A stretch of 64,000 nucleotides of DNA from an uncultured Candidatus Saccharibacteria bacterium (GTDB lineage: Bacteria; Patescibacteriota; Minisyncoccia; UBA6257; 1-14-0-10-44-23). The translations under genes were made by a program, and so were the position numbers. The notes below the pieces were generated by a model. It was not told the DNA's origin. It saw nothing but the letters and a program-made list of their open reading frames with translations, and ran no database searches. The stretch covers positions 29,026 through 93,025 of the forward strand of contig CAZXKC010000004.1 in assembly GCA_964641225.1 (NCBI GenBank), written 5' to 3'. Within the stretch, counting starts at the first letter, position 1; every line of letters begins with the position of its first letter. Shown in pieces: positions 17,891-38,178 of the stretch.

Positions 17891-17941
17891 AGCCGCACAA
17901 ATTGGGTCGTTTTTGGCCTAAAAATAGACCAATTTGTGCGG
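17891..17941. promoter_or_regulatory. Perfect 16-bp inverted repeat (TAGCCGCACAAATTGG ... CCAATTTGTGCGGCTA) upstream of the high-GC pseudogene
   Basis: Seen directly in the sequence. A stem-loop with a loop of about 20 nt. Confidence 0.3.
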
Positions 17942-21112: not shown

Positions 21113-21197
21113 GGAGGGGTGGCAGAGTGGTCTAATGCACCGCACTTGAAATGCGGCGTGCCGCAAGGCACCGTGAGTTCGAATCTCACCTCCTCCG
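21113..21197 (+). tRNA. tRNA-Ser (anticodon TGA), class II
   Basis: Acceptor GGAGGGG/CTCCTCC, anticodon loop CTTGAAA, long variable arm, T-loop GTTCGAATC. Confidence 0.75.
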
Positions 21198-22790
21198 CAA
21201 GTTGAGATTCTTGTCATACCGAGCCTCCAAAGACCCCGTTCCGACGCGGGTTCTTGGAGGTTCGAATGAAGACTTGGTCTCTGGAACAGCAGCCGTGTAT
21301 TTTCTGATAAGAAACGCCGTGTTGCCGTTATCCCACTTCACTTTTTTGTCTAAGAGGCGGAGGTTCGAATCCTGCCCGAGGGCAGCGACAAATTCCCGTC
21401 GTTTTTCTGGCGTAGCCTTATCCCAGCGTTTAGCGACCTCAGTAGCGAAGACAAATCCTTCTTCGGCTTTATTAACCCAGTTCACCACCTCTGCGTTAAC
21501 CTCGTTAGCAACTTGATTAAGCCTAGCCTGGTCTTTAAGAAGCTCCTTTTTACGCTCCGCAAACTGCTTAGCATCAATCTCCTCATCAGCACGCATATCA
21601 ATGAGACGTTTGAGCCTCTGAGCACAGGCATCGTCGGCCCTACGCTGGGCGGTCAAGATTGCTTCCCGCTCACGGAATTGGTTCTCGTTTTCCTTTCTTA
21701 GTTTTGCCAAAGCCCAATCCCGGAAACGCGGAGAGATATCCATACCCTCAACAACCTCCTCGATCTGTTTTTCTAGAGCCTTCTCTTCCACGAGAGGCTG
21801 CGCACAGCGAGGTTTCAGCTGTTTAGTACAGTGATAATAGATATAGGTATGGACATTGCCGTTTTTCTGTCGTTTTATACGTTCCTCGGCAGTTATAGCT
21901 GCGCCACACGCCCCGCACCGAAGTATGCCGACATATTTAAACCAGCGTCGTTCCTGGGGCCGAGGCATACCTTTGCGGCCCAACAATTTTTGGACGCGAT
22001 CAAACTCTTCGAGGGTAACCATTGGCTTGTGATTTCCTTTATATAGCTTCCTGTTTTCTTCATTTCCATATTCAAACCACCCGTAGTAGAAGGGATTGTT
22101 AAAGAGATGGTAAATAGCTGCCCGAGAGATTGGATTACCACCACCGTTTCTTCGTAGAGGTGTTCGTAGGCCCCAATCCTTCGTAGCGATGTCGAGTACC
22201 TGCGGAGCGGTATAAGCACCAGTCAGCATGAGGTCCCATGCCTTGCGAACTAACGGGAAGATTTCCTCATCAACGAGAATCGTATTTGAACCCTTATCGC
22301 GCAGCCTGCTATTTTTATAGCCGATCGGAGCTGGCCCAGGACGCCAACCCATTCCGACCTTAGTATTCTGTCCGCGTTTTACGTTGGTGCTGAGGTCATC
22401 TACATATTTCTTGGCAATACCGAAGTCCAAGCTCATCATGAACTTGTCATCACCGTTGTTTCGGAAAACTTTCTCAGGTGTACGGATTTCCGTAATGAGG
22501 CCGCGATCCATAAACCAAGAAATTTTTCCACCATCCAACGCATTGCGTGCCAAACGGTCGAGCTTCCAAACTAGAAGTGCGCAACTTTTTTCTTTTTCGA
22601 GATAAGTGAGCATCTCTTCAAAGTGCGGGCGGCCCGGAGACTTGGCCGACTTGCTCTCCTTGAAGGTTGCACAAATCGTGAGCTTCTCGCGCCGCGCATA
22701 ACTCTTAAGTACCTCCTCTTGGGAATCTATCGAGAGAGCCTGCTTATCGTCTGATTCGGAACTTTTGCGGCAGTAGACAACGTACTTCAT
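21186..22790 (-). CDS. Large serine recombinase (integrase)
   Basis: N-terminal resolvase domain with catalytic Ser (YCRKSSESDD), a recombinase domain, a Cys4 zinc ribbon (CGACG...CTKQLKPRC) and a coiled-coil. The ORF 3' end overlaps the tRNA-Ser 3' end, so the true stop may lie earlier. Confidence 0.8.
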   Translation of the reverse strand: MKYVVYCRKSSESDDKQALSIDSQEEVLKSYARREKLTICATFKESKSAKSPGRPHFEEMLTYLEKEKSCALLVWKLDRLARNALDGGKISWFMDRGLITEIRTPEKVFRNNGDDKFMMSLDFGIAKKYVDDLSTNVKRGQNTKVGMGWRPGPAPIGYKNSRLRDKGSNTILVDEEIFPLVRKAWDLMLTGAYTAPQVLDIATKDWGLRTPLRRNGGGNPISRAAIYHLFNNPFYYGWFEYGNEENRKLYKGNHKPMVTLEEFDRVQKLLGRKGMPRPQERRWFKYVGILRCGACGAAITAEERIKRQKNGNVHTYIYYHCTKQLKPRCAQPLVEEKALEKQIEEVVEGMDISPRFRDWALAKLRKENENQFREREAILTAQRRADDACAQRLKRLIDMRADEEIDAKQFAERKKELLKDQARLNQVANEVNAEVVNWVNKAEEGFVFATEVAKRWDKATPEKRREFVAALGQDSNLRLLDKKVKWDNGNTAFLIRKYTAAVPETKSSFEPPRTRVGTGSLEARYDKNLNLRRR

Positions 22791-22972
22791 AGGGAATATT
22801 TTAATTTAACCATGCGAATTATATTTGAGACAATATCCGGTTTTCATATAGCTTCTGAGGGTCAGCGACCTACATCTTCTACATCACCCCAGACTCTCCG
22901 CGCAAACAAAGAAGCGCTGGGGTGTAGCCGCTCATAAACTAATCTACAACGTGCAGGCCTCTATATACACGC

Positions 22973-24409
22973 TCAGATTCCCAAGCTCCCGTCTACATTG
23001 CCAGGAGTGGCCGTCCTTTCTGGGTCAGGAGCTTCAGGTGTAGATGGTGTAGAGAAATAAGTGTCCCGGACAAGTTCTACCTTTGCCTTTTCGAAAAGAT
23101 ACCAATTTCCCTCCCCCTTTCGTTTCTTCTCGCTGTGCATGTTGTAATTTTTAATGCTCCACCCAACCCTGGCTGCTATCTGGTTTGAGCTCATTTTCCG
23201 ATCGAATAAATTTACGTCTAGAGCCTCAGCTATAAGTCTCGGTGAGAGCAATATCTGGGTTATGCCATCTTTGAACTGCTCAAGGATGTACGCCAAGACA
23301 GCATGGTCTAGCTCAGATGGCTCAGACTCAGCAAAGTCATACCGTGACAAGAAGCGCTTCCTTGCCTCTGGTATTTCTTCGGCTACGTTCATGGCACGGA
23401 ACATAACTTCAAAGGGCAACCATAATTCGAGTGTTCGTCCTGATATCTCTTTTTTTGCCCTATGCTCGACTTTGAGGATTGAGTAATCTATGGCTACCGA
23501 AGAGCCATGACCAATAAGGAACTTATAAAGTTTTCCCCTTAGGCCGCCCCAGATATCACTCTCCTCATCTGGGTCAAAAAAATTTTTGTGGCTCCGTAGT
23601 AGAGGAATAATCAGGCACCTATCGCGTAAGTCCTCTGGAAGGTCCTGTATCGAAGCGAATACCTTAGGCCCATAAGTGCTGTGTTCGACAATGCTCCTTT
23701 GCTTCTCTTTATCGAGCTGAATAATTCTTCGCTTACCGCCGCTACCCTTATAAGAATCAGCAAATATATCAAGCAGTTCTTCGCCACCCTTGCGCTTCAA
23801 CCCATCTGCTTGATCGACCAAGAACGTTCCTCTTAATGCATCCACCGTATCTCCAAGGGCCGCAACACTAGGCCGGCTCTTAACTGCGTTGAAGCAGAGT
23901 TGCTTCAGAAGATTCAGAAACTGGCTTTTGCCAGAGTGCTTCGGAGCCTTAACGTTTAAGAACGGATACGCCGAAAAGATAGGGTGGAAATATGTTCCCA
24001 CTATCCAAGCTGCTGCTAGTGAATAATCAACCTCCTTTTCTAGGCCGACATAGTCTTTAATCGTCTTTTTGATTTCCTCGAAAAGCTCCTTTGGCTCAGG
24101 GATGACATTTAAGCGGACGTCTGCGTATTCAGCTATGAACTGATTGAGGTCTTTGATGCTCCAGCGCTCCTGAAGCCAGATAAGCCGTCGACCCTTCTTC
24201 TCGATGAAGTATTCCTTGTCTTCGATAACCAAAGAATCTTCTGTAGCGAAGCGAATCGTTCCTTTCCATACTAGTAGAATTAAATCCTCAACCTTTCGTA
24301 ACTTTGAGTGGTAACGGAAACCTAGAACCAAAACACCGTCTTTTATATCAAGCGAAGGGTGGAGCGTTATTCCAGCGAATCCCTCAATGATATTTTTGTT
24401 TTCATCCAT
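22973..24409 (-). CDS. P-loop NTPase, replication-associated (D5/P4-primase-helicase or VirE-like; uncertain)
   Basis: Walker A APKHSGKS, Walker-B-like FLVDQAD, and a C-terminal winged-helix-like region. It sits next to the integrase, as in satellite or integrative-element replication modules. Confidence 0.4.
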   Translation of the reverse strand: MDENKNIIEGFAGITLHPSLDIKDGVLVLGFRYHSKLRKVEDLILLVWKGTIRFATEDSLVIEDKEYFIEKKGRRLIWLQERWSIKDLNQFIAEYADVRLNVIPEPKELFEEIKKTIKDYVGLEKEVDYSLAAAWIVGTYFHPIFSAYPFLNVKAPKHSGKSQFLNLLKQLCFNAVKSRPSVAALGDTVDALRGTFLVDQADGLKRKGGEELLDIFADSYKGSGGKRRIIQLDKEKQRSIVEHSTYGPKVFASIQDLPEDLRDRCLIIPLLRSHKNFFDPDEESDIWGGLRGKLYKFLIGHGSSVAIDYSILKVEHRAKKEISGRTLELWLPFEVMFRAMNVAEEIPEARKRFLSRYDFAESEPSELDHAVLAYILEQFKDGITQILLSPRLIAEALDVNLFDRKMSSNQIAARVGWSIKNYNMHSEKKRKGEGNWYLFEKAKVELVRDTYFSTPSTPEAPDPERTATPGNVDGSLGI

Positions 24410-24421
24410 AATGATGGTTAA

Positions 24422-24598
24422 TTAATTATTTTCATCAGCGCCAAGCCCGTCGACCTCGGGCATTGGATCGATAGCAAATTTTATGAGAGCAAGAAGCCTG
24501 CACGCTTCTTTGGCGGCGTGTTCATCAGTAAGCTCTACGCCTGTCTCGGCGAGATATAGCTGCTTAAAATTTTGGATTTCCTCTGTCGATAACTGCAT
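24422..24598 (-). CDS. Small ORF (58 aa) not in the ORF track, possibly an island regulator or excisionase-like protein
   Basis: Hand translation gives MQLSTEEIQNFKQLYLAETGVELTDEHAAKEACRLLALIKFAIDPMPEVDGLGADENN. It ends 13 nt before the start of the 478-aa gene. Confidence 0.2.
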   Translation of the reverse strand: MQLSTEEIQNFKQLYLAETGVELTDEHAAKEACRLLALIKFAIDPMPEVDGLGADENN

Positions 24599-24657
24599 TC
24601 ACTGACCTTATCGTTCAGACCTATATGCCTGACATCCGTTTCTTGTATGCCTGCAAA

Positions 24658-24682
24658 CTAAAAAAGCCGCTTATTCGCGGCA
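24658..24682 (-). terminator. Rho-independent terminator after the 237-aa minus-strand gene
   Basis: GCCGCGAATAAGCGGC hairpin followed by TTTTTT on the minus strand. Confidence 0.5.
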
Positions 24683-24728
24683 CATTTATTGAGGTTATTA
24701 ACAGGACAAGAGGCAGACTAAAAGAATC

Positions 24729-25442
24729 CTAGCTACTGAGTAGTATTTTGAATCCCGGATTAATCCCGTAGCCGCTGCCTCGTTTGCTCACAATTAATTT
24801 ATCCTTAACGCCTAGGTACTTTTTAAAATTCCTATTAATTTTTTGGATTTCTGCGCGTATCGTCTTTAGATTATCCTTGTTTAGAGCGGAAGCAATATCA
24901 CCCGTTAATTTAAATTCGGAGCCAACCTTAAGAAATTTAACAATTTTAAGGCGGTCAGATTTTTGACCCATTGGATAAGAATATTTATCCTTTGATTCAC
25001 GCCACAAATTGCCAAGCTTATCGATGGAAATAATTTCTCTCTTTTTCTTCAGGTTATTATTTTCTGCCTGCAGCAACTCAGATTGGTCGGAATACTTTTG
25101 ATAAAGCTTATCGAACTTTCCGTGGTTCACTACTATCAGGCAAACCCTACCACTTGCTGGCCGAGAAAAATCATTTGGTAGTCCTATGGTGACATAGTGT
25201 TCAGCAAGGTTCATCGAAAGATGTATTACACCCATTTCACTAAGCCAGAGAAGAATCCTCCGGCGCATTATGGGATGGGGCGCAGAAGGAAGATTGGTGC
25301 CGATGTCATCGAAAGGGGCGTTGTAGTCCGTCATTATGATGCCCTTATTTGGCTTAAAAGAGGCAGCAATTTTAATTGCCGTCATAACCCACGCGGTGGC
25401 CCCTTCCCGATAATGCTCGGCGTTAGTAGTGTCCATATACAC
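24729..25442 (-). CDS. Hypothetical island protein with a C-terminal winged-helix-like DNA-binding region (candidate replication initiator or primase-like)
   Basis: N-terminal region has an FDDIG acidic motif. C-terminal region KIVKFLKVGSEFKLTGDIASAL... has an HTH-like pattern. No confident family assignment. Confidence 0.3.
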   Translation of the reverse strand: MYMDTTNAEHYREGATAWVMTAIKIAASFKPNKGIIMTDYNAPFDDIGTNLPSAPHPIMRRRILLWLSEMGVIHLSMNLAEHYVTIGLPNDFSRPASGRVCLIVVNHGKFDKLYQKYSDQSELLQAENNNLKKKREIISIDKLGNLWRESKDKYSYPMGQKSDRLKIVKFLKVGSEFKLTGDIASALNKDNLKTIRAEIQKINRNFKKYLGVKDKLIVSKRGSGYGINPGFKILLSS

Positions 25443-25589
25443 TCTTTATGGACGAGTTGACAGGGTTATGTCAATAGACTCCATATCTTACTTCCAAGCT
25501 AACTCAAGAGGTGATAAAATGTGCTTACAATTTAATACGCCGCAAGGCAGAGCCTAAACCGCCAAGAAATTGACGGCATGGCTCCGAAG

Positions 25590-25700
25590 TCCAATAACGA
25601 CCATTAAGCTCCTAGTCAGAGCGTCGTTATTGGCTATCCAGGGAAACTTGGGTAGGTCCCGTAAGGGATCGCTGGCTGGGAGCTTTGTGTTTCTCAGCCC
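25590..25700 (+). ncRNA. Structured 5' leader RNA, copy 1 (candidate riboswitch or cis-regulator), upstream of the 25719 operon
   Basis: Four helices, each with compensatory changes relative to copy 2. Hairpin 1 has an invariant 21-nt loop CAUUAAGCUCCUAGUCAGAGC. Hairpin 2 has loop GGAAAC. Hairpin 3 has a GNRA tetraloop. Hairpin 4 has loop GAGCUUUGUG, complementary to the loop-1 sequence AAGCUCC (predicted pseudoknot). Confidence 0.45.
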
Positions 25701-25718
25701 AAATAAAATTAATAAACT

Positions 25719-26156
25719 ATGCCCAAGACTGAACCAGAAAATCAGGGCGATGGGGAAATTCAATGGGTTGAGGCTGGTCTGATAAAGCCAGAGGGAGAAA
25801 TTAAGCATCCTGTATTACCAGTTGATCTGGTTACAAGGATAGAACGATTCGTAAAAGTATTTGGCGAAACATATCCGCTCTCGCTTGAAAGGACAATTTA
25901 TAATTTCAAACGGGAAGCTCATCCCGGCAGCGAAGTGGAAAGATGGGAAGCGATGGCGGAGGTTTATAGAGATTACCTTGTGAAAACTGAAGGTCTCTCT
26001 GCTGACCAGAAAAAGGAACTACTTTCGATATTGCTTTTTAGTGCAAGCGCGGCCAACAGACCGGGTGGATTTAGGTATTTCGATAAGCCAGCAATTCTGA
26101 GAATCACGAAAGAGCTGGAGAGGGCCTATGCAGTAATCCAATCAAGTAGAACTTAA
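25719..26156 (+). CDS. Hypothetical protein (145 aa), first gene after leader copy 1
   Basis: ATG follows the leader element. No recognisable domain. Confidence 0.4.
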   Translation: MPKTEPENQGDGEIQWVEAGLIKPEGEIKHPVLPVDLVTRIERFVKVFGETYPLSLERTIYNFKREAHPGSEVERWEAMAEVYRDYLVKTEGLSADQKKELLSILLFSASAANRPGGFRYFDKPAILRITKELERAYAVIQSSRT

Positions 26157-26170
26157 AAACTAATCACTAT

Positions 26171-26362
26171 ATGAACATCTTACTGATAGCGATAGTAGTA
26201 CTCCTGATAGTTATAGCCACGGCAGCAGTTATTAGTGCACTTAGCCAATCGAGCTTCGAACTAAAAGAAGTCTGGGTTATATTTTTGTGGGTAGTCGTTG
26301 GGGCGGCCGCAGTGACTGGAATAACTTACTGGGCGCTGAACTTTTTTAATATAATTCATTAA
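26171..26362 (+). CDS. Small two-TM membrane protein (63 aa)
   Basis: Two hydrophobic helices, tightly spaced in an operon. Confidence 0.35.
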   Translation: MNILLIAIVVLLIVIATAAVISALSQSSFELKEVWVIFLWVVVGAAAVTGITYWALNFFNIIH

Positions 26363-26366
26363 TATC

Positions 26367-26615
26367 ATGAAAAGAATTATCTACGCGATTGTATGCGCCA
26401 CCATTATCATTTCCTCGTACTGGCTATGGCACGCGGATAGATTGCAGGTTGAAAATGCAGAATGGTGCCTTACGCAAGAGGTATATCAATACGAAGTTTG
26501 TGGAGCTAAGGCTGAGCGTGACATTCAGCGAACGGTTTATCTGAAGGTGCTGATGTTTTCGTTCCTGGTCTTCGGCTCAACCAGTTTAGTTCTTAAGGCC
26601 AGGAAAATTTCTTAG
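26367..26615 (+). CDS. Small membrane protein (82 aa)
   Basis: N- and C-terminal hydrophobic helices, tightly spaced in an operon. Confidence 0.35.
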   Translation: MKRIIYAIVCATIIISSYWLWHADRLQVENAEWCLTQEVYQYEVCGAKAERDIQRTVYLKVLMFSFLVFGSTSLVLKARKIS

Positions 26616-26624
26616 AGGCCCGTC

Positions 26625-27656
26625 TTGGTATTTCCCTTGCCTCCGGAGCCGCTTTCGCTATTGGAAGGCCATAGCAGTAGCCTCAGTTATATCGAGATAC
26701 AAGAGAAGGGCAGGAAAAGCCCGGAACCCTTTATTTACGGGGCTAAACATAGTAGTCTCAAGCTAAGATATATGGTGATACCGGGCACAAAGGGCGTAGA
26801 TACCACAGGAGTCACGGCGGGCAACACCGGGAACGAATTGTTTTATTTTTGCATATCCGACACAGAGGATTCAGGCTACCTAGAGCGATTTATCGAACAA
26901 TTAGACGCCCACATACCGTCATTTGTTTTTTCAAAGGACACCCTTGCGAATTATGAGAGGCTTTTAGCAGAGGGAAAAACTTCAAAATCCCCACTGGAGC
27001 ATGCGCGACACCTTCTGCAAAAGACCAGGGCGGGCGGAACGGCCGGATCAGGAGAGCTAGGAGAACTACTGATGTTTCTTTTCGCTAAAAACGTAAAAGG
27101 TGCGAACAAGCTGGTTTCCAAAATTCAGAGCCGGACTAGCACTACGACAACCCAACAGGGGCGCGACGGCAGCTTTATATTGCAGGATGAGCGAGGGGAA
27201 ATTTATATGCTTCTAGGAGAGGCTAAGATGCACCAAGACTCCAATGACGGCTTGAGAGAGGCGCAAACAGATATGAATGCATTTTGGGGCGATCAGGAAC
27301 GTTTGAGCCACGAGATTCGCCTGGCTTCCAGCCACCTCCGCGATGAATTAACTCCCCAGAACACCGCGGCTTATGAAGCCTATTTCATCGACGATAATCC
27401 TAGGCATCAAGAATTGAAATATAAGAGTGTTGTTTTTGTGGGATTCAACTTTCCAGCGTTTTCTGCGCTGATTCAGAAAACAGCAGATTTCAACGCATTC
27501 AGTCAGGAAGTATTAGCCGACCTAAACCGATGTTTCAATAATCAGGCCGCACACATTACTGCTTCTCCGCACCCCAACATTTATTGCTTCGTACCCTTCG
27601 AATCAGTGGAAAGCGCACGGACAGCATTCGCTAGTCGCCACTCATTAACCCACTAA
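26625..27656 (+). CDS. HamA-like (DUF1837-like) putative PD-(D/E)xK effector of a Hachiman-like system
   Basis: Immediately precedes a large SF2 DEAH helicase, with stop and start adjacent. Possible D...(E)xK motif in FILQDERGEIYMLLGEAKM. The true start may be the internal Met (MVIPGTKG). Confidence 0.4.
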   Translation: MVFPLPPEPLSLLEGHSSSLSYIEIQEKGRKSPEPFIYGAKHSSLKLRYMVIPGTKGVDTTGVTAGNTGNELFYFCISDTEDSGYLERFIEQLDAHIPSFVFSKDTLANYERLLAEGKTSKSPLEHARHLLQKTRAGGTAGSGELGELLMFLFAKNVKGANKLVSKIQSRTSTTTTQQGRDGSFILQDERGEIYMLLGEAKMHQDSNDGLREAQTDMNAFWGDQERLSHEIRLASSHLRDELTPQNTAAYEAYFIDDNPRHQELKYKSVVFVGFNFPAFSALIQKTADFNAFSQEVLADLNRCFNNQAAHITASPHPNIYCFVPFESVESARTAFASRHSLTH

Positions 27657-27657
27657 T

Positions 27658-30333
27658 ATGCCAGACCCGGTCATAAACTTATCCAATAAGATTCGGGAAA
27701 GCGGGAAATTCAATGAACGTTTTCTTGCGCTGCAAAAATATGCCGCTAAAAAGCGACTCACCTTTAGCGCTGAGGATGCAACCCCTGAACAACTGCAAAA
27801 ATTGATACTCCAAGCTTCGGTGCTTGCATTGAGCGATGACATTGAGCACAAACGTACAGCTCAAAAAATCATGGCCTTGTTCCACGAGATAAAGCCGGAC
27901 AATCATTTACTAAGCTACGCGATACAAATTTTAGCATCACGACTTGGAAATTTTCCTGTCGTAAGTAATGCATCCACAGTCTTTGGTGAATCCAAAATAT
28001 TTAAAGATGCTTCTGATGAGGCTTCGTTGGATACAGAGTATCTTTTTGACCCTGAAATAATCGCCAACTTATACTCTGAAGAGGCTCAGTCACGATTACA
28101 GATACAAGATAAGGTTTACCATTTTAATATTTTCCAGAAAGAAATACTTGATGCCCTGTCAGAGAAGGCGTTGGTGAGCTTTTCTGCTCCCACATCATTT
28201 GGAAAATCATTCATCGTTCGGCAGCACATAGCGCATCTATATGCTGGTCAGAAAGTTAAACGGGTCCTAGTACTTGTTCCTACCAAGTCCCTGATCGATG
28301 ATTTCTTTGCGGATTTTGTAAAAATAAAACGAGAGCTGAATCTTGATTTTGGCATTTTTACTCACGCCCGTTCCGTAGATGCGGTTCCGGAGAAGGCGGT
28401 ATTTATTCTGACGCAAGAACGGATATCATTCCTCATCACCAAGAATCCTGAATTTGTTAAGTCTTTTGACTTGATTTACTGCGACGAAGCCCACTACATC
28501 TCCAGAGGATATCGCGGATTTGTTTTGCGAAGTGCTCTGAAAAAACTTATCGAGCTGTGCGGAGTGGGCATCGAGGAGGGCAAGGCTCGATATATTTTCA
28601 GCTCCCCATTGATTAAAAATCCTGAGTACTACAAGGGGAAGCTATTTCCCTTACTTTCCTCAGAGCAATCGTTTCATAAAGAAATTCTCTATTCACCGGT
28701 CGAAAAGAATATCCATTTTATTGCCAAAGAAGAGCGGCAATTTAAGTATTATCTTTTGAAGGATTCTTTTGGTGAAGATTCATTCGATGATCGGCTGGAA
28801 GAGCTCGGTTCCAGAAATTTTCCCCAAGGATTAATGACCGAGGATACGAGAGCACAAAAAATCGACCGAGAGATTCGAATGGTTCTGGACTGCAGTGGGA
28901 CAAGCCCTTCAATCTTGTATACCACCAGCCCAATTTTCGCCCACAGATACGCCTTAGCATTGGCCGAGGCTCGACCGGAACGCAACCGAATATCTAGTCA
29001 AGAAATCGAGGATTTGAGCAGATACATTAAAGACCATTACGATGACAACTTTGGCCTAGTGAATATCTTAAAGAAGGGCATCGGCTTGCACTATGGGCCG
29101 ATGCCGACTGGGCTTCGGAGAGCAATGGTTGACCTCTTCGAGCGAGGCCTGATTGATTACATGGTTTGCACCCCAACTCTTCTTGAGGGGGTCAATCTCC
29201 CAGCAAAAAATATCTTTTTATTCTCTGATAGGTATGGAGGGCACGGTGGCAAAGAAAAACACTCGGCGCTATCTTTCTGGAACTTAGTTGGTCGAGCCGG
29301 CAGAATCACTTATGGTCTTTCTGGAAATGTATTCTGCATTGAAGATGAGCCTCAAAAATACGAAGACCTCTTCGAAAATACTGAAACCGAGATAACTGAC
29401 CCGGAGGCGAACGTCATGGAGAATGACACTCGGAGGAGTTACATTGTAAAAACTTTTCTTTCTGAAACTGATAGGTTTGACTATTTTCGGTCACATAGTC
29501 GAGGTGATATAGAATACCTAATATTTGAACTTTTGACCCGTGAAAATCCCGAACGAATCTTGGACAATTTCAATCTTAACCCCGAAGAAAAAGCTAGGAT
29601 GCTTGCTGCTATTCAGCAGCAGAGAGCGGAACTGAGCATATCGTTAGAGCTGGTCAACAAGAACCCTGGCATCGACCCGCGCTTGCAGGATAGATTGTTA
29701 GCCAATCTGCGATCGCTCCCAGAAGAAGAGCTTCGTGGTTACTTGGAAATTCCAGGTAATACTTTGGCAGTTACCGGTTCGCAGCTAGCAGATATCCTTG
29801 GGTACGTAAAACGGGATTTGGCCTGGCCAAAAAGGGATGAAAGCAGAACTGCGAACCGAATTATCCAGTGGCTACACGAACATCCTATTTCTTTTTTTAT
29901 TAACCAAGTTTTGCAATATATCGAACCGGGCAGCGAATTCGACACCCACTTGGGGAAGATTGAAAAAGCTATCGAAATTCTTCGGGAGGTTGACCGAGAG
30001 TTATCCTACAACGCTCCCAAATATCTTAAATGCTTCTACGATTTACTCATTCAAATCGCCGCTGAACAAGGGATTGCCGATATAAATATCTATGAGGAAA
30101 AAATTGAATCATTCCTATTTTCGCTCGAGTCAGGCGTCTCTTCTGTAATAGCAAAATTTCTCCTCGAGAAGGGTGTTTCAAGGCCAGTTGCCATACGAGT
30201 AAGCAGTTTAGTTGATGATATAGCTTCAATCCCAATCTCAAATGATTTTTTCGAGAAACCCGAAGTCCTCGAGAGATTGAGTCGCCTCTCAAAACTCGCC
30301 CTAGATGAGCTTAAGGAGCGACTCGGTGTTTAG
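27658..30333 (+). CDS. SF2 DExH-box helicase (Ski2/Hel308-like core), HamB-like
   Basis: Motif I SAPTSFGKSF, motif II LIYCDEAHYI, helicase C-terminal motifs GIGLHYGPMP...MVCTPTLLEGVNLPA, and a long C-terminal extension. Confidence 0.6.
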   Translation: MPDPVINLSNKIRESGKFNERFLALQKYAAKKRLTFSAEDATPEQLQKLILQASVLALSDDIEHKRTAQKIMALFHEIKPDNHLLSYAIQILASRLGNFPVVSNASTVFGESKIFKDASDEASLDTEYLFDPEIIANLYSEEAQSRLQIQDKVYHFNIFQKEILDALSEKALVSFSAPTSFGKSFIVRQHIAHLYAGQKVKRVLVLVPTKSLIDDFFADFVKIKRELNLDFGIFTHARSVDAVPEKAVFILTQERISFLITKNPEFVKSFDLIYCDEAHYISRGYRGFVLRSALKKLIELCGVGIEEGKARYIFSSPLIKNPEYYKGKLFPLLSSEQSFHKEILYSPVEKNIHFIAKEERQFKYYLLKDSFGEDSFDDRLEELGSRNFPQGLMTEDTRAQKIDREIRMVLDCSGTSPSILYTTSPIFAHRYALALAEARPERNRISSQEIEDLSRYIKDHYDDNFGLVNILKKGIGLHYGPMPTGLRRAMVDLFERGLIDYMVCTPTLLEGVNLPAKNIFLFSDRYGGHGGKEKHSALSFWNLVGRAGRITYGLSGNVFCIEDEPQKYEDLFENTETEITDPEANVMENDTRRSYIVKTFLSETDRFDYFRSHSRGDIEYLIFELLTRENPERILDNFNLNPEEKARMLAAIQQQRAELSISLELVNKNPGIDPRLQDRLLANLRSLPEEELRGYLEIPGNTLAVTGSQLADILGYVKRDLAWPKRDESRTANRIIQWLHEHPISFFINQVLQYIEPGSEFDTHLGKIEKAIEILREVDRELSYNAPKYLKCFYDLLIQIAAEQGIADINIYEEKIESFLFSLESGVSSVIAKFLLEKGVSRPVAIRVSSLVDDIASIPISNDFFEKPEVLERLSRLSKLALDELKERLGV

Positions 30334-30808
30334 AATTACCTTCCTCGTCGTTACGATGAACATTAAATTGCATGAGGATTGGGCGAGGTTCAACTTGCCC
30401 GTCACCGCTCAAAGCCTCTTTGGTACTGAAATGTTTTCGGTCTAGTCGCTCAAGTACGAACTTAGAAAGATCGGCCTTGATTGCCATAATCTTGGTGTTC
30501 CGGCGCATGATGGGCTGGCCGGTGGCCTTATTCTTCATCGGTCCGAAGGCTGTCATTACCGGCTCGCTTTCATCGAGGGTAAGCATATCTTCTAGATTAC
30601 GCTCGGCTTTTTCAATCATCGCCTGATGCATGGTGACGGCTTCCGAAAGTACTTTTGGCGATTGATGAGTTATCTGCTTAGCGTAGGCGACGCTGTACCC
30701 GGCCTTCACAGCCGACTGATAGGCGTTTGCAAAGGTGGAGCTTTTTGGATCCACGTAGTAGGCCTGAAAAGCCAACTGTCTCATATCTCTTTGTTTGATG
30801 CCCGGCAT
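30311..30808 (-). CDS. Phage terminase small subunit-like protein (Terminase_2-like N-terminal HTH)
   Basis: N-terminal pattern RQLAFQAYYVDPKSSTFANAYQSAVKAGYSVAYAKQITHQSPKV matches the TerS consensus (QeaF..Yl...N...A...AGYS...A). No terminase large subunit or capsid genes are nearby. Confidence 0.45.
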   Translation of the reverse strand: MPGIKQRDMRQLAFQAYYVDPKSSTFANAYQSAVKAGYSVAYAKQITHQSPKVLSEAVTMHQAMIEKAERNLEDMLTLDESEPVMTAFGPMKNKATGQPIMRRNTKIMAIKADLSKFVLERLDRKHFSTKEALSGDGQVEPRPILMQFNVHRNDEEGNSKHRVAP

Positions 30809-30990
30809 GAAAAAATTTTATCATCCGCTATTCCAGGGGGACAAGTGTATCGATGTGGTTGACAAGATAGAGGGGCTATGTTATCTTGTTTTTGATATGA
30901 AATCCGTGACCGCACAATTTAGTTACTATTACGCCGCATATATAACCACCCGGGTGCGGTAACTTTGTCTTAAATAATATTGTCTCTACC

Positions 30991-31016
30991 AACCGCCCCC
31001 GAGCGGTTTTTTTGTT
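30991..31016 (+). terminator. Terminator-like hairpin (AACCGC-ccccga-GCGGTT followed by TTTTTTTG)
   Basis: Seen in the sequence. No plus-strand gene lies immediately upstream, so its function is uncertain. Confidence 0.2.
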
Positions 31017-31121
31017 TTCGCGATCTCGGGGGTATAGAGCAGCGTGTTTCTGAACGATCGTTCGTTCAGGCGCTGTAGAGGCCCCGGAGCCTCAAGAGTT
31101 CTTTGAAAGGAGAATAGCGTC

Positions 31122-31391
31122 ATGGCCACGATTCGCATTACTCAGGTTCTGGCTGGCGGGAAGATACTCGACCACGACTTCGCTGTGCCGGAGTCAGATC
31201 CGGTCGGTTTCGGCTGCTCCTGCGGGTTCATGCATCCCACATGCTGCGCCCGCGGCTGTGGGTGCATGCCGCAGATCCACCGCTACGTCAAGAAACTGCC
31301 TCACTCGTTGGAGTGGGGCGACCTGGTGGAGCGTCGTGGGAAGGTCGTGGCTGTGCCCGACAAGAAATCTGACGGTGGAGAGACGTACTAG
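31122..31391 (+). CDS. Small Cys-rich protein (high-GC cassette)
   Basis: Multiple CxxC/CC motifs (GCSCGFMHPTCCARGCGCMPQ). GC about 62%. Confidence 0.3.
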   Translation: MATIRITQVLAGGKILDHDFAVPESDPVGFGCSCGFMHPTCCARGCGCMPQIHRYVKKLPHSLEWGDLVERRGKVVAVPDKKSDGGETY

Positions 31392-31393
31392 CT

Positions 31394-31969
31394 GTGCGCG
31401 ACATCCTCGGCATCATCGCCGCAATCCTGACGCTCGCTGGGTTCATCCCGGCGGGCGTCGGAGCAGTACGCGGACCAGTTCGCCCAAGCAGGGCGACATG
31501 GCTCATCTGGGCGGCGGAGGCGGTACTCATCTACCAGACCTTCGCCGCCGCAACTCCGGACTCAAGCGCACTCTGGATTCCGCTGGGATTCACCGTAGGA
31601 GCGGCAGGGATGTTTCTCCTTTCGGTTTCATTCGGGGAGGCCGGGTGGAGTGCCCTCGACAAGTGGTGCCTGGCAGGAGCGGGTGGCACGATCATCGTCT
31701 GGCAACTCGTTGGACCTATCGCGGGGCTACTAGCTGGTATCGCTACCGACATGATCGGAGCGGTGCCGACGGTGGTCAAGACATGGAGAGATCCAAGTAG
31801 CGAAAGTCGTGCACAGTGGTTGCTTTGGTGGCTCGGTGCCATCTTCAACCTCTGCGCGATCAAAGACTGGCAATCCGTGGAGGCGGCGTACCCGCTCTAT
31901 GGAATTGTTCTGACAACTACAGTAGCCGGCATTATGGCCGGTAGAAAGAGGAAGTATGCCCAAGGCTAA
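31394..31969 (+). CDS. Polytopic membrane protein (high-GC cassette), paralogous to the native gene at 61801-62355
   Basis: GTG start. Shares ATWLIW...W...P...E...W(L/M) motifs and TM topology with the 61801 protein, although the two genes differ in GC by about 17 percentage points. Confidence 0.45.
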   Translation: MRDILGIIAAILTLAGFIPAGVGAVRGPVRPSRATWLIWAAEAVLIYQTFAAATPDSSALWIPLGFTVGAAGMFLLSVSFGEAGWSALDKWCLAGAGGTIIVWQLVGPIAGLLAGIATDMIGAVPTVVKTWRDPSSESRAQWLLWWLGAIFNLCAIKDWQSVEAAYPLYGIVLTTTVAGIMAGRKRKYAQG

Positions 31970-32519
31970 GGAAAAGGGATGGGTTCGTGCCCGCGACGAG
32001 AAGTACTACGTTGGCCAAGAGATCGACTTCACGGCCAACTACGACGACCACGCTCCCGAGGCGGTATTGAAGGCCATGTTCCACAACTACATGCCCGACA
32101 GGGCAGACGCCAAGTACGTGGACCTCAACCAGAAGGGCAAAAAGCCTCTCAGGGGCTACTGGTACTTCAAGGTCAAACTGCTCAACCCGTCTCGCGGTTT
32201 CTCGTACGAGGAGTCCGTAGAGTGGGCTCAGAGCTCGTACGTCGGGGGCAAGGGCGTAGTTCCCGGACATCTGGCGGTCGCCTTCGCCGAACAGTTCCCG
32301 CTCCTCGTCATGCTCGGCGACGTGAAGCTCACGGGAGGAATCTGGCGGCACGAGAACAGACTCACCTGCATCGAGCTCACCCAAGGCATCAACGGCAGCC
32401 AAGACATCCTCGCGTTCCGCTATCAGGACGGAGGAATGGTCTCGGATCACGACATCTGTCCGGTGATCATCGAGCAGGAGCAGATCGTGGTCCCGACTCG
32501 GAGAGGCCACGGCTACTAG
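31956..32519 (+). CDS. Hypothetical soluble protein (high-GC cassette)
   Basis: Protein-like composition. The overlapping minus-strand and Arg-rich alternative ORFs look like high-GC shadows. Confidence 0.35.
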   Translation: MPKAKEKGWVRARDEKYYVGQEIDFTANYDDHAPEAVLKAMFHNYMPDRADAKYVDLNQKGKKPLRGYWYFKVKLLNPSRGFSYEESVEWAQSSYVGGKGVVPGHLAVAFAEQFPLLVMLGDVKLTGGIWRHENRLTCIELTQGINGSQDILAFRYQDGGMVSDHDICPVIIEQEQIVVPTRRGHGY

Positions 32520-32575
32520 CCCACAGCACGCGCGGCGGCATCGACCCACAAGGTTGATGACCGCCGCGCTTCATT

Positions 32576-32980
32576 TTATACTTTGACGGTCTCGCGGTTC
32601 TGGAGTAAGGTTCGAACATCGTCTAACAGCTGCCGCACAGTAAGACTATCGGTATGTGTCAGCAGTAGATTGAAGGGAGAACGTAGCGTAAAATCTAGCT
32701 TCTTGCCATTCAGGACGCAGTTCTGAAGTAAGAAGCCCAAAAACTGGCGCTTTTCTTCAACTTCGGCACTATCAAATATCTCTTTTGCCCTCTTAGCGAT
32801 GTTAAGGGTCATATTTGCTGTGAGATAGAACTGCTCGTCGGCTTCCGAATGATCTTTCATTTGATCCAACACTTCGGCTTGCTTCTCTTTGTACTCTCTC
32901 AAGAAAGTGTCATACATTTCATCCGTAATCCGCCTTGATCTGCGGTAAATCCTAGCGTTTTTTATTTTGACCGACTCCAA
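32576..32980 (-). pseudogene. C-terminal fragment of a second large serine recombinase (remnant)
   Basis: Region TFLREYKEKQAEVLDQ...KRQFLGFLLQNCVLNGKKLDFTL resembles the conserved C-terminal coiled-coil region of large serine recombinases. No catalytic domain is present. Confidence 0.35.
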
Positions 32981-33071
32981 TAAAAGCTATACTATAAGCA
33001 TATCGTTTTTATAACAATTTAATGCAGTGAAGCCTAACCCGCGCGGGCAACCACGTGGTATGGCATCAAAT

Positions 33072-33185
33072 CCGGTAAAGGTCATTAAGCTCCTAGTCAG
33101 AGCTACCTTTACCGGTCATATCTGGAAACGGATATGGGTGGGCGCAAGCCCATCGCTGGCTAGGAGCTTTGTGATTTCTAGCCTG
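33072..33185 (+). ncRNA. Structured 5' leader RNA, copy 2, upstream of the 33201 operon
   Basis: Same four-helix architecture and conserved loops as copy 1, with different stem sequences (see copy 1). Confidence 0.45.
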
Positions 33186-33200
33186 TCTGAAATTAAAATT

Positions 33201-33878
33201 ATGGACAAGCAAAAAGAGAATGCCGCAATTAAGTTCTTTCGTAAGCATCCGATCCTTTCCTCAAATATAATCGGCATCATCCTCGGCATAGCGATAGCGT
33301 GGTGGCTCTGGCTTATTGCCTGCGTTCTCGGCTTTGTATTTTATTTCCACTACCAGAAAACACTGAAGCATGAAGTTGCCACAAATAAAGCGGCTAGCAA
33401 TGATGCCGTGAAAACCAAAAAGTGCCGTGCCTGCAAAATGGATATCGCGGCAGGGGCAACAAAATGTCCGCATTGCAGAACCGCTCAACCAAATAGCGTG
33501 GCGGCTGTATTTGGGCTATTTGGAATAATAGTTGCCGTTGTTGCCATCGTCGTTATTAGTAGTAATTCCGATACTTCCACGCCAACAAAGCAGAGCAAAT
33601 TAAATGATCCCACTATTGATTGGCAAAGTATCTGTTCAGCTTTTGACAATTTGAAAACGGCAAATATCGTCAAAAAAGTTGAGGGACGAAGTGTTTACGT
33701 TGCTCCTTTTTGGTGGAATGTGGCAAACATTGAAGATAAAAAAAATATTGGCTTTGGCTCTGCCTATTGCATCGCCCGCGACTTAAACTCAACGACTGTC
33801 TGGTCAGATATTTATGACTGGCAATCTGGCAAGAAATTAGCCCATTACAGTGAAGCGTGGGGCTTTTCAGTTGAGTAG
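33201..33878 (+). CDS. Membrane protein with a cytoplasmic CxxC...CxxC zinc ribbon
   Basis: The true start is the ATG at 33201 (MDKQKEN). The ORF-track start at 33027 would translate the leader RNA. Two TM helices flank CRACKMD...CPHCRT. Confidence 0.45.
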   Translation: MDKQKENAAIKFFRKHPILSSNIIGIILGIAIAWWLWLIACVLGFVFYFHYQKTLKHEVATNKAASNDAVKTKKCRACKMDIAAGATKCPHCRTAQPNSVAAVFGLFGIIVAVVAIVVISSNSDTSTPTKQSKLNDPTIDWQSICSAFDNLKTANIVKKVEGRSVYVAPFWWNVANIEDKKNIGFGSAYCIARDLNSTTVWSDIYDWQSGKKLAHYSEAWGFSVE

Positions 33879-33916
33879 TTTTCGCCGGCGAACACAATCG
33901 CTAAAATGGCGATTTC

Positions 33917-37516: not shown

Positions 37517-37521
37517 ACTTC

Positions 37522-38172
37522 GTGGAAGAAATCTTGTATAGAACATACGCAAAGGTTGGAGCTTTCTTTACTGGTTCTCAAAGAAGGTATTTGTTTTACT
37601 CTATAGCTTTAATGGGACTAGCTATCGCCTTATTGTCTGGATTTTATTTTCAATTCAACATTGGAACTGAAACCCTATCTCTCATTTTTAACTCAATTGT
37701 TCAATCGCTTATAGCATTGGTTGGTCTTATGGCTGTAGTAGTCGTTTTTAAGTACCAGAGTATGGCAACACGGGAAGATCGGCTTTTAGAAGAACTGAAT
37801 AAGACGACTTCAGATCTTGCAATGCTCGGCGGAAATCTAAACGCAACCTCTGGAGAAGATTTAATTAACAATATCAATCCGCACGTACCCAAAACGCCAA
37901 CTGCTAATGACGGATTTAGAACTATTAAACTCAGGCGAGTTAAGCAGGAGTTGGAAGCTCATAATTTTTTGAAAACATTTTTAGGAGATTATATGATTAA
38001 AATGAGTATTTATGGTTTTACTATAGTTTTATTAAGCTTCCTAGCTCTAATTTTCGTCCCCTACTTTTCACAGCACTATTATCTAGCAATCAGTAGTCTG
38101 TATGTCTCATTATTCTTCGTTGCTGATATACTACGGCTAGTAATCAAGATTATCGCCGAAGCCGTATCTTAA
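37522..38172 (+). CDS. Four-TM membrane protein
   Basis: Hydrophobic helices at the N- and C-termini. Follows the helicase-nuclease gene by 6 nt. Confidence 0.4.
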   Translation: MEEILYRTYAKVGAFFTGSQRRYLFYSIALMGLAIALLSGFYFQFNIGTETLSLIFNSIVQSLIALVGLMAVVVVFKYQSMATREDRLLEELNKTTSDLAMLGGNLNATSGEDLINNINPHVPKTPTANDGFRTIKLRRVKQELEAHNFLKTFLGDYMIKMSIYGFTIVLLSFLALIFVPYFSQHYYLAISSLYVSLFFVADILRLVIKIIAEAVS

Positions 38173-38178
38173 AACTTT

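Follow-up and report, generated by a model that had tools for sequence, protein, structure and literature searches.

Tycheposons, which have been described in Prochlorococcus and other marine bacteria, carry a specific clade of tyrosine recombinase in 474 out of 501 cases, are flanked by partial tRNA copies, and occur on one backbone both as cargo-carrying and as PICI-like (terS, MCP) variants (bioRxiv 10.1101/2020.12.28.424599). The locus analysed here resembles them in several respects: they are likewise tRNA-adjacent integrative elements, with tRNA-Ser(tga) among their sites, they likewise pair an integrase with a helicase/primase module for replication, and they likewise build islands as tandem integrations and degenerate remnants, among them fragmented integrases, accumulate by the tRNA. 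On the other hand, our locus differs from them in that it uses a large serine recombinase (LSR) and not a tyrosine recombinase, lies beside a tRNA with no distal partial copy of it, belongs to a host of the CPR, and has a LOOT RNA leading its cargo operon. The integrases of PICIs/SaPIs are tyrosine recombinases, and these islands also carry a master repressor together with a divergent regulatory module, as well as defined packaging/capsid-remodelling genes (PMC6092414). Here too a site-specific integrase gene stands at one end, by the tRNA-Ser 3' end, though it encodes a serine, not a tyrosine, recombinase, and unlike in PICIs/SaPIs the small terminase subunit (TerS) is found in one family member only. 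Another phage satellite, the PLE of Vibrio cholerae, integrates and excises by means of an LSR and has a replication initiator of its own; it is ~18 kb long, inserts into VCR repeats and carries a RepA_N initiator and many interference genes specific to ICP1, with no TerS-only packaging module. With PLE our intact element shares the LSR integrase and, going by predicted fold, a probable replication gene of its own, and there is no sequence relationship between the genes. From the SCC elements (SCCmec) our element differs in its recombinase, whose matches to CcrB and CcrC reach 72.6 and 65.7 bits against NCBIfam cutoffs of 900, so that it is not a Ccr orthologue; neither a CCPol primase nor an LP1413 partner was detected, and the SCC target is rlmH whereas the site here is a tRNA 3' end. 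No SCC element is known to have a LOOT RNA.

Our window is a stretch of 64,000 nucleotides from an uncultured Candidatus Saccharibacteria bacterium (GCA_964641225.1, contig CAZXKC010000004.1). We consider it likely, with a probability of roughly 70%, that tRNA-Ser(TGA) seeded a genomic island spanning 21.1 to ~39.2 kb, and that this island contains two members, the first (E1) intact and the second (E2) decayed, of a family of compact integrative elements with a wide distribution in Patescibacteria (CPR). This family is apparently undescribed, as we found no published description of it.

Gene content of the tRNA-Ser locus

As listed in Table 1, an LSR, a P-loop NTPase, a gene for a 58-aa protein and a 237-aa orphan adjoin tRNA-Ser(TGA), and after the orphan follow a Hachiman system, a TerS gene without partner, a high-GC cassette and a C-terminal LSR fragment. 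E1, the intact copy with the Hachiman genes, starts at 21.2 kb and reaches at least 30.3 kb; E2, at 32.6-39.2 kb, is the decayed one and consists of the LSR fragment, a second LOOT RNA and a helicase-nuclease operon.

Table 1. Features of the island in window coordinates
Feature	Position	Strand	Evidence
tRNA-Ser(TGA), attachment site (attL side)	21113..21198	+	ARAGORN + Rfam
LSR (integrase), 534 aa, apparently intact	21186..22790	-	Pfam, PHROG 95
P-loop NTPase, 478 aa, probable C-terminal winged helix	22973..24409	-	Walker A; predicted fold
Conserved 58-aa protein, directly upstream of NTPase	24422..24598	-	Homologs
Variable "X" gene, 237 aa, orphan	24729..25442	-	No homolog
LOOT RNA copy 1, cargo-operon leader	25545..25716	+	Rfam RF03000 covers 25551-25670
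LOOT-led cargo operon 1: 145-aa ORF, two small probable TM ORFs (63, 82 aa), HamA, HamB	25719..30333	+	Pfam, PADLOC
HamA	26625-27656	+	Pfam HamA 1.8e-27; PADLOC HamA2 1.3e-30
HamB	27658-30333	+	PADLOC HamB1 6e-119
Orphan phage-type TerS, 165 aa, full length, no TerL	30311..30808	-	Homologs and their context
High-GC three-gene cassette (89, 191, 187 aa)	30877..32577	+	GC, L031 homology
Second LSR C-terminal fragment, 134 aa, E2 remnant	32576..32980	-	L016 / L025 similarity
LOOT RNA copy 2, second cargo-operon leader	33025..33200	+	Rfam covers 33031-33154
LOOT-led operon 2	33198..39229	+	Pfam, PADLOC

The final 13 nt of the LSR gene, stop codon included, overlap the tRNA-Ser 3' end in antisense. 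The protein unites a resolvase domain bearing the Ser nucleophile with a Recombinase domain and a zinc beta-ribbon, each above its Pfam cutoff (Resolvase 66, Recombinase 38 and Zn_ribbon_recom 33 bits), and matches the integrase family PHROG 95 with E=6e-62; moreover, all residues invariant in the family alignment are kept, among them R8, S10 and the cysteines of the Zn ribbon. The LSR of one relative (L035) shares 71% identity with that of E1, and the 3' half of a tRNA-Ser likewise forms the end of this element. Breaks in independent Logan contigs fall at the tRNA 3' end and within the X gene, just as would be expected for a variable element.

The NTPase has a Walker A motif, KAPKHSGKS, that is conserved throughout its family, and at the fold level it is probably an SF3/MCM-like replicative (initiator) helicase. 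The best significant structural matches of its predicted model are phage primase-helicases, the ATPase core of the model (residues 175-258) being of low confidence; neither Foldseek against the PDB nor a sequence profile search of the PDB gave a positive result, and a weak match to PHROG 21086 was obtained. No primase domain accompanies this helicase-like NTPase in E1, nor were iterons or ori-like repeats found there. Directly upstream lies the 58-aa protein, homologs of which stand at this place in L035 (54% identity), L011 and L025 as well; as a guess, it could be a putative excision/directionality factor or a partner of the helicase. The next gene, X, has neither a homolog nor an HMM match, and the genes at this position in other elements are mutually unrelated; a single-sequence AF2 model of the protein reached a pLDDT of 32 and is unusable. 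A terminator-like hairpin is located by this gene at 24666-24681.

Most of this was already contained in a sequence-only reading of the same DNA, which had proposed an integrated island formed by a serine recombinase whose gene overlaps the tRNA-Ser(TGA) 3' end, followed by a P-loop gene with a Walker A motif, a 58-aa ORF and a 237-aa ORF with its own terminator, and our results bear out each of these; the 58-aa ORF turns out to be a real member of a conserved small-protein family. Its description of the P-loop gene as a replication-type NTPase holds as far as a helicase-like fold goes, but no replication HMM matched. For the 237-aa protein, which it called wHTH-like, no HMM gave a match that would bear on this. 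It was mistaken in calling the genome low-GC, since the GC background is ~0.46.

A recurrent element core in Patescibacteria

The LSR, the NTPase, the small protein and a divergent LOOT RNA form a conserved core of 4-7 kb in 26 related Patescibacteria loci, the LSR at one end, then the helicase, a protein of ~60 aa and a variable gene, and LOOT at the other end. In 9 of the 26 loci the LSR gene has its stop codon within the 3' end of a tRNA. Insertion sites differ between genomes, with 9 tRNA identities in use besides sites outside tRNAs, contrary to the fixed gene order in relatives that the sequence-only reading had named as evidence against a mobile element. In many genomes the module of LSR, NTPase and LOOT is bounded by host genes, and the closest relative of E1 carries different cargo. 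The identity of the NTPase is ~50% across CPR classes, which suggests horizontal spread.

As for the far boundary, no displaced copy of the tRNA-Ser 3' end was found in the window with up to 3 mismatches or by sensitive local alignment, no significant flank repeat marks an attR, and searches for an empty-site relative and for a circular or episomal contig of the element gave none, so that Hachiman, TerS and the cassette are at most putative parts of E1. We infer that the cargo belongs to the element.

LOOT RNA at the head of the cargo operons

The "leader RNA" of the sequence-only reading is the LOOT RNA of Rfam (RF03000). Against a gathering threshold of 46.4 bits, the two copies in the window score 83.5 and 89.4 bits, respectively, and both match the model over its full length (positions 1-121 of 121); with our own covariance model they score 168.5 and 156.8 bits. 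In copy 1 a co-oriented ORF begins 3 nt past the 3' end of the model. Among the related loci there are 14 LOOT copies, each of which either exceeds the gathering threshold by far or matches the model built from such copies. In an alignment fitted to the model, 92% of the cells are paired and compensatory changes occur at 39 of 49 pairs, and the conserved structure runs ~30 nt past the 3' edge of the Rfam model.

LOOT is transcribed divergently from the rest of the element core and, wherever present, heads a variable operon reading outward, except for the orientation in L030, where it is co-oriented with the NTPase. It is missing from L004/L019, L016, L017, L021 and L026 despite enough upstream sequence. 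In Rfam, LOOT is entered as an sRNA gene whose function is unknown; in these elements, by contrast, it is consistently the 5' leader of a cargo operon beside an LSR and a helicase, and it may act as a cis-regulatory leader.

In operon 1 the cargo is a Hachiman system, since HamA (DUF1837) and HamB, a DEAD-box helicase, are adjacent and 1 nt apart, so that the "HamA/HamB-like" pair recognised earlier can be given its name; the small ORFs before them have no homologs. Elsewhere in the family the cargo consists of R-M systems or cell-wall proteins.

The orphan TerS and competing origins of the island

The 165-aa ORF converges on HamB with an overlap of 23 nt and lies 4.6 kb beyond the conserved core of E1. 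Judged by its homologs and their genomic context, it belongs to a genuine phage TerS family, as had been proposed. Its own score against Pfam Terminase_2 is 17.1 bits, below the cutoff of 26.1 and over residues 11-50 only. An exhaustive HMMER search yields 549 homologs, and the protein aligns with homologs over its full length; of 42 homologs, 12 match Terminase_2 (best 9.5e-5), and the family shows weak but consistent matches to Terminase_2 and the TerS PHROGs. One homolog with 55% identity (P0127) lies upstream of Terminase_3/3C and another (P0129) upstream of Terminase_6N, and in about 60 of 65 IMG/VR loci with a TerS homolog the next large ORF is TerL.

With such a gene, E1 might be a PICI-like phage satellite, as the sequence-only reading had labelled it: upon infection by a helper CPR phage it would excise, replicate with its own helicase and redirect the large terminase and capsids of the helper by its own TerS, with Hachiman as anti-phage cargo. 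We regard this as unlikely. Neither tblastn nor the TerS family profile detects TerS in any of the 26 related loci, so it is not a family trait, and being a satellite would be at most the trait of this single copy; the TerS gene stands past the cargo operon, on the opposite strand and beside an independently acquired cassette, and with the far boundary not found it cannot be placed inside the element. Moreover, IMG/VR (2.9 million viral contigs) contains no relative of the NTPase family, none of 80 TerS-bearing phage loci has a LOOT RNA, genes for capsid remodelling, a repressor or other packaging functions were not detected, and no helper phage is known.

It is still less probable that the region represents one or more decayed CPR prophages, with the LSR, helicase and TerS as leftover lysogeny, replication and packaging genes and the defence genes accreted in the scar. 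All three kinds of gene are common in phages, the structural and PHROG 21086 matches of the NTPase point to phages as well, and one recombinase is clearly fragmented; nevertheless, the genes of E1 are intact, and the compact module of 4-7 kb recurs between host genes without structural genes, capsid genes being found in none of the 26 loci. The absence of the NTPase family from viral contigs also speaks against a prophage. From 19.6 to 39.2 kb there is no structural or lysis PHROG match and no HMM match to TerL, capsid, portal or tail genes, in agreement with the earlier remark that such genes are absent. Finally, a fixed domesticated locus, in which the recombinase serves the host, for example by developmental or phase-variable excision or inversion in the manner of XisF and SpoIVCA, the neighbours are host accessory genes and LOOT is a host regulatory RNA unrelated to mobility, would agree with XisF being among the weak best NCBIfam matches, far below cutoff, and with the lack of detected excision products, direct repeats and empty sites, yet it is very improbable in view of the varying insertion sites, the different cargo of the closest relative, the probable horizontal spread of the NTPase and the Logan contig breaks.

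Probable serial integration and the second element

The best reading is a tRNA-seeded island shaped in a tycheposon-like way by serial integration and decay. The recombinase would integrate the element at the extreme tRNA 3' end, with its own stop codon falling within the tRNA; after excision, the helicase of the element may recruit the replication of the host so that the circle is copied; the cargo behind LOOT, which is often anti-phage, would benefit the host and so maintain the element in the population; and repeated integration followed by deletion would build the island, as in the tycheposon model. The order of the integration events is likewise inferred.

The orphan TerS and the high-GC cassette sit between E1 and E2. 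The high GC content noticed earlier at 31.1-32.5 kb was measured as 0.53-0.60 in the 31-32.5 kb block. The cassette is homologous to positions 8928-11036 of L031 (GCA_023255625.1), where the context is unrelated, with 80% identity at the left end, 87% in the membrane-protein gene and 100% in a 47-nt GC hairpin at the right end; it is an independent, horizontally acquired block.

Next to it, the decayed second recombinase proposed by the sequence-only reading is a true LSR C-terminus, with 46% identity over 109 aa to the C-terminus of the L016 LSR and 27% to residues 488-579 of LSR1 in L025. It shows no similarity to the window's own LSR and comes from a different LSR clade than the E1 integrase. 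No tRNA remnant abuts its 3' end, and E2 therefore did not come from a second integration into the same tRNA. The fragment backs the serial integration suggested earlier, and the suggestion that the operon at 33-39 kb is part of the same hotspot is supported too. In E2, everything between the last 134 codons of the recombinase and its LOOT is gone, and the defence-like helicase-nuclease operon has been kept. This operon encodes a membrane/zinc-ribbon protein, a 1199-aa SF1 helicase-nuclease, two unknown proteins of 216 and 157 aa, and a PRK-like kinase (PRK match 3e-11). The 1199-aa protein has the Pfam domains AAA_11/AAA_12 and an MTES_1575 nuclease domain (PDC-S37/Hhe-like), and in PADLOC it matches PDC-S37 with 1.5e-72 and Hhe with 8.5e-37.

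A conserved core of integrative elements in Patescibacteria

The region next to tRNA-Ser(TGA) is best read, with a probability of about 0.7, as an island seeded at this tRNA by integrative elements that combine a large serine recombinase (LSR), a helicase and the structured RNA LOOT (Rfam RF03000) and that occur throughout Patescibacteria (CPR): an intact copy carrying Hachiman, a decayed copy carrying a helicase-nuclease and, trapped between them, an orphan phage small terminase gene (TerS) and a horizontally acquired cassette.

Features of the tRNA-Ser island, with positions in the window
Feature	Position	Strand	Remarks
tRNA-Ser(tga)	21113-21198	+	ARAGORN, Rfam
LSR, 534 aa	21186-22790	-	Resolvase, Recombinase and Zn_ribbon_recom above Pfam cutoffs; PHROG 95 (integrase) E=6e-62
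P-loop NTPase, 478 aa	22973-24409	-	Walker A KAPKHSGKS; LSR strand
58-aa ORF		-	LSR strand; family of the conserved ~55-70 aa proteins of related loci
X gene (variable gene), 237 aa		-	LSR strand; terminator-like hairpin downstream
LOOT copy 1	25551-25670	+	Rfam 83.5 bits
LOOT-led genes, intact copy		+	145-aa ORF, two small hydrophobic ORFs, HamA, HamB
TerS, 165 aa	30311-30808	-	
High-GC cassette	30877-32577		Homologous to 8928-11036 of L031 (GCA_023255625.1), between the unrelated genes BtpA and FtsH
LSR C-terminal fragment, 134 aa	32576-32980		46% identity (109 aa) to the C-terminal end of the L016 LSR; also matches residues 488-579 of L025 LSR1
LOOT copy 2	33031-33154		Rfam 89.4 bits

The NTPase has a large family, with at least 222 members at a mutual identity of about 50%, whose named records come almost all from Patescibacteria (Nealson-, Nomura-, Doudna-, Kaiser-, Zambryski- and Saccharibacteria, Paceibacterota). 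Across the 26 distinct related loci examined the gene order is constant: a variable gene of 140-520 aa, often a DUF5659-like gene of ~80-100 aa, the conserved ~55-70 aa protein, the NTPase, sometimes one extra ORF, and the LSR. Unrelated host genes (sigma-70/DnaG, YebC/RuvC, DNA ligase, SecDF) border this block directly, so the unit occupies different sites in different genomes. In the closest relative, L035, the NTPase is 78%, the LSR 71% and the small protein 54% identical to those of the window, and the match at the DNA level is confined to 21164-24561 and LOOT, while the variable gene and the cargo differ. The X proteins of different elements are in fact unrelated and no alignment of them could be built; the 237-aa protein had no HMM matches, and its single-sequence AF2 model reached a pLDDT of 32.

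For the NTPase no sequence match was obtained in Pfam, NCBIfam or PADLOC, nor in PDB by phmmer or by a family-profile search. An AlphaFold2 model based on a 28-sequence alignment has a pLDDT of 70.8, with low confidence at residues 175-258, a stretch that contains the putative Walker B region. Foldseek gave nothing significant for this model against PDB, and against viral models 13 matches at E<=1e-3 (best 1e-14), namely phage primase-helicases, 'DNA helicase', VapE, DUF927, NrS-1-type and SF3 helicase proteins. At the fold level only, the protein is thus probably a stand-alone SF3/MCM-like replicative or initiator helicase, and to this extent the comparison with viral models agrees with the sequence-only reading, which had called it a replication-type NTPase.

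Recombinase genes that end inside their tRNA

All family-invariant residues, among them R8, S10 and the cysteines of the zinc ribbon, are kept in the window LSR. The final four codons of its gene and the stop lie antisense to the acceptor stem of tRNA-Ser, which confirms the overlap of the two 3' ends proposed from the sequence. Moreover, an LSR ORF terminating within the antisense 3' end of a tRNA is found in the window and in nine related loci, and this geometry is therefore a family trait, far beyond chance.

Length of the overlap between LSR and tRNA genes
Locus	tRNA	Overlap
Window	tRNA-Ser	13 nt
L002	tRNA-Asn	15 nt
L012	tRNA-Gly	10 nt
L025 (second LSR)	tRNA-Gln	13 nt
L008	tRNA-Met	35 nt
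L023	tRNA-Asp	40 nt
L027	tRNA-Ala	63 nt
L021	tRNA-Glu	64 nt
L004/L019	tRNA-Leu	whole tRNA (84 nt)

L035 likewise extends into the 3' half of a tRNA-Ser, which differs from that of the window by compensatory changes in the T stem and the acceptor stem; five LSRs with complete flanks have no neighbouring tRNA. In L004/L019 the gene caller missed the LSR ORF (11584-13338), which extends across the whole of the antisense tRNA-Leu(gag) gene; by tblastn, its ~22 C-terminal residues match the tRNA-Leu locus of the window. This suggests that the C-terminal tails of these LSRs may simply be whatever the antisense strand of the tRNA encodes.

Two independent Logan contigs, L001 and L035, both stop ~30 nt inside the tRNA 3' end. 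If the Logan assembly uses k=31, as we presume, this would be suggestive, though suggestive only, of a branch point in the assembly graph at the very 3' end of the tRNA, and such a branch point would fit a crossover there with alternative right-hand neighbours in the population. L001, a contig of SRR14271332, is identical to window 21170-24753; its other break lies within the X gene, 8 codons from the 3' end, and its breaks fit population variants that have the LSR, the NTPase and the 58-aa gene in common but differ in X gene and cargo.

LOOT as the leader of the cargo operons

Besides the two copies in the window, the Rfam model finds LOOT once each in L002/L003, L005 and L007. A covariance model built from five copies gave 18 matches, which after removal of duplicates correspond to 14 copies in 13 related loci and the two in the window. 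All of them but the L030 copy are encoded on the strand opposite to the NTPase, 1-3 kb upstream of it. The L030 copy (7595-7767), the only one on the NTPase strand, has a tRNA-Asp 630 nt away, and three ORFs separate it from the NTPase downstream; this is possibly a rearranged or composite element.

Conservation and pairing extend ~30 nt past the 3' edge of RF03000 (window 25671-25716 and 33155-33200), and the Rfam model may be truncated. In a helix of 20 bp, AAGCTCCTAGTCAG pairs with CTGGCTrGGAGCTT to close a three-way junction, a U-rich stretch follows, and 15 of the 20 pairs show compensatory changes. Over 15 distinct sequences, in an alignment fitted to the model, the paired fraction of cells is 92% and compensatory changes occur in 39 of 49 pairs, values reached by none of 500 shuffles, with slid controls at 34-45% paired. 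A co-oriented ORF starts at -46 to +79 nt from the LOOT 3' end in all 16 copies; LOOT thus forms the 5' leader of an operon that reads outward and varies in content, and we infer for it a putative cis-regulatory function.

As to this content, the pair described from the sequence as HamA/HamB-like is indeed Hachiman, both genes being confirmed by Pfam and PADLOC (HamB 6e-119). Because LOOT belongs to the core and leads this operon, Hachiman is plausibly part of the intact copy. The second LOOT leads an operon with a PDC-S37/Hhe-like SF1 helicase-nuclease and a PRK-like kinase. Elsewhere the LOOT-led cargo is a type III R-M system (L011), an MTase-Mrr fusion (L015), an MTase (L025b), secreted proteins of PG_binding_1 and trypsin-like type (L007, L035, L029, L014, L015) or a giant S8 protease (L002), and thus defence or envelope cargo driven from LOOT is typical of the family. 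The operon of the second LOOT (window 33917-39229) comprises the genes of this helicase-nuclease, a 1199-aa protein whose nuclease domain is of MTES_1575/DUF559 type (PADLOC PDC-S37 1.5e-72, Hhe 8.5e-37), two unknown proteins and a P-loop kinase of PRK/uridine-kinase type, a combination that may be an uncharacterised defence system.

A decayed second copy and an independent cassette

The decayed serine-recombinase fragment suspected at 32.6 kb proved to be a relative of the LSRs of other elements, with no similarity to the window's own LSR, and it starts 45 nt from the second LOOT. With an LSR fragment of element type beside LOOT, the second copy is therefore a deletion derivative, which lost the N-terminal ~400 recombinase codons, the NTPase, the small protein and the X gene and kept LOOT and the cargo operon; no further LSR or NTPase fragments exist in the window. 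After tandem insertion at the same site, the LSR fragment would be expected to have a remnant of the tRNA at its 3' end; none is present. Since the fragment has no such remnant and abuts the high-GC cassette directly, the copy was not simply displaced from tRNA-Ser.

An independent tandem of two LOOT and LSR units is found by tRNA-Gln in L025 (8872-19676), where LOOT, NTPase and LSR1 are followed by 3.5 kb including an MTase and then by another LOOT, a gene of 1.1 kb and LSR2, which overlaps the tRNA; the unit nearest the tRNA is without NTPase, and at LSR1 a tRNA-Gln remnant is likewise absent.

The cassette resembles its L031 counterpart at the left end (80% identity over 150 nt), in a 191-aa membrane-protein gene (87%) and at the right end, while the other genes differ. 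The right end is a 47-nt GC-rich hairpin (GCGCGGCGG...CCGCCGCGC, then TTCATTTT), at window 32531-32577 and L031 10990-11036, which in the window ends precisely where the LSR fragment has its stop codon; being 100% identical beside a gene at 87%, it could be a conserved terminator or a recombination or attachment site. The genome had been taken for a low-GC one, which does not hold, the background GC being ~0.46. On this background stand patches of ~1 kb with a GC of 0.55-0.62 (8001-10000, 17001-18000, 31001-32600, 42001-43000, 49001-50000 and 57001-58000), one of which includes the adenylosuccinate-lyase gene at 8125-9582; L031, which comes from a different CPR genome, shows a comparable patchiness (GC 0.37-0.64), and the patches may stem from genes often acquired horizontally from donors of high GC. 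Given the homology to L031 in an unrelated context and the similar patches elsewhere, the cassette is therefore an independent acquisition outside either element.

The orphan small terminase and the phage-satellite reading

Taken alone, the TerS protein has only sub-threshold matches, at residues 11-50 (Terminase_2 17.1 bits against a cutoff of 26.1; PHROG 51 E=0.009), and a word-indexed homolog search returned the query itself only. An exhaustive HMMER scan gave 549 homologs, 207 of them at E<=1e-10, covering residues 8-135; among 42 sampled, Terminase_2 is matched by 12, PHROG 51 by 11 and PHROG 1482 by 6. The closest homolog (55% identity), on the phage-like contig L032, directly precedes a Terminase_3/3C gene, and another (47%) lies upstream of a Terminase_6N gene. 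With an 11-sequence alignment as query, IMG/VR yielded 94 relatives, and in ~60 of 65 non-redundant viral loci a large terminase gene (TerL; Terminase_6N 30, Terminase_3 24, GpA 5, TerL_ATPase 1) is the first large ORF that follows in the same orientation. The window protein aligns full-length with its homologs, its gene overlapping the 3' end of HamB convergently by 23 nt, and no TerL, portal, capsid or tail family matches in 19.6-39.2 kb. It is therefore correctly an orphan terS, and the sequence-only reading was right both in this and in the absence of large terminase, capsid and tail genes.

From the layout of integrase, replication module, defence genes and orphan TerS it had been concluded that the element is a phage-inducible chromosomal island or similar satellite. 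TerS is present in no related element locus, either by tblastn or by the TerS family profile, and the reading rests on a single gene unique to the window copy. Moreover, the NTPase family has no relative in IMG/VR, and LOOT is absent from 80 TerS-bearing phage loci, all of which argues against TerS as a part of the element family. We thus consider the satellite reading unlikely. Its strongest form is just as doubtful: the intact copy would be a functional satellite, the first in CPR, in which the family-wide backbone of LSR, SF3 helicase and LOOT would have captured a phage TerS in order to take over the terminase and capsids of a helper phage, Hachiman being delivered by the element at the same time, with the LOOT leader coupling cargo expression to the state of the element. 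A decayed prophage fits the comparative data poorly and is quite improbable, and a domesticated locus, which fits them no better, is the least probable of all.

On L032, a protein at 6958-7209 matches the Acb2/Tad1 hairpin family of anti-CBASS/anti-Thoeris sponges, which suggests that phages akin to the TerS donor carry counter-defence genes.

Boundaries of the island

The direct repeat of the tRNA-Ser 3' end expected from the sequence was not found; neither a 27-mer nor an 18-mer at up to 3 mismatches nor blastn-short revealed a second copy (attR). A 32-nt block (window 26623-26654, L035 1725-1756) is common to the two closest elements only, with 87.5% identity of marginal significance (E about 0.008). 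It stands just after the small LOOT-led genes in both, in the window upstream of the HamA domain and probably non-coding, and may be an old element end, a terminator or chance; as an att repeat with the tRNA-proximal flank it was not significant (p=0.29 direct, 0.90 reverse complement). An empty site was not found by comparison, the 307-aa gene of the left flank being an orphan and the relatives of ParB at most 60% identical, with synteny ending exactly at ParB. There were no circular contigs among the 31 element loci and no iterons or ori-like tandem repeats in 21-33.3 kb, and promoter and terminator counts were not above those of shuffled sequence.

Relation to known islands and occurrence

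Patescibacteria have tiny genomes and an epibiotic lifestyle; to our knowledge their mobile elements are poorly characterised, with few plasmids or prophages recognised. We found no publication on this element family, on LSR elements of CPR or on the context of LOOT, in a search that did not cover the supplement with the original LOOT description. Tycheposon islands grow from tRNA seeds by tandem integrations, with fragmented integrases and both cargo-carrying and PICI-like variants (bioRxiv 10.1101/2020.12.28.424599), and this growth model matches that of the window. However, the elements here are not tycheposons, since they have a serine instead of a tyrosine recombinase and lack partial tRNA repeats. 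The combination of an LSR, a possibly Cch-like helicase and cargo recalls SCC elements, but the window recombinase is not a Ccr orthologue.

Altogether, a compact and widespread family appears to spread defence systems and genes of the cell envelope among CPR lineages and to give rise to islands at tRNA genes, similarly to the tycheposons of Prochlorococcus but with a serine recombinase gene ending inside the target tRNA. The orphan Rfam family LOOT receives a genomic role as the conserved leader of the cargo operon, which makes its function directly testable, and together with the NTPase and the LSR it provides a simple marker for accessory and defence cargo in CPR genomes. The tRNA-specific LSRs, with about nine distinct targets, could interest genome engineers. 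Some MAGs under the names Pseudomonadota, 'uncultured archaeon', Woesearchaeota and Micrarchaeota also include short contigs with the NTPase (L010, L012, L024 and L028); these are either CPR contigs binned wrongly or a sign that DPANN archaea have the element too.
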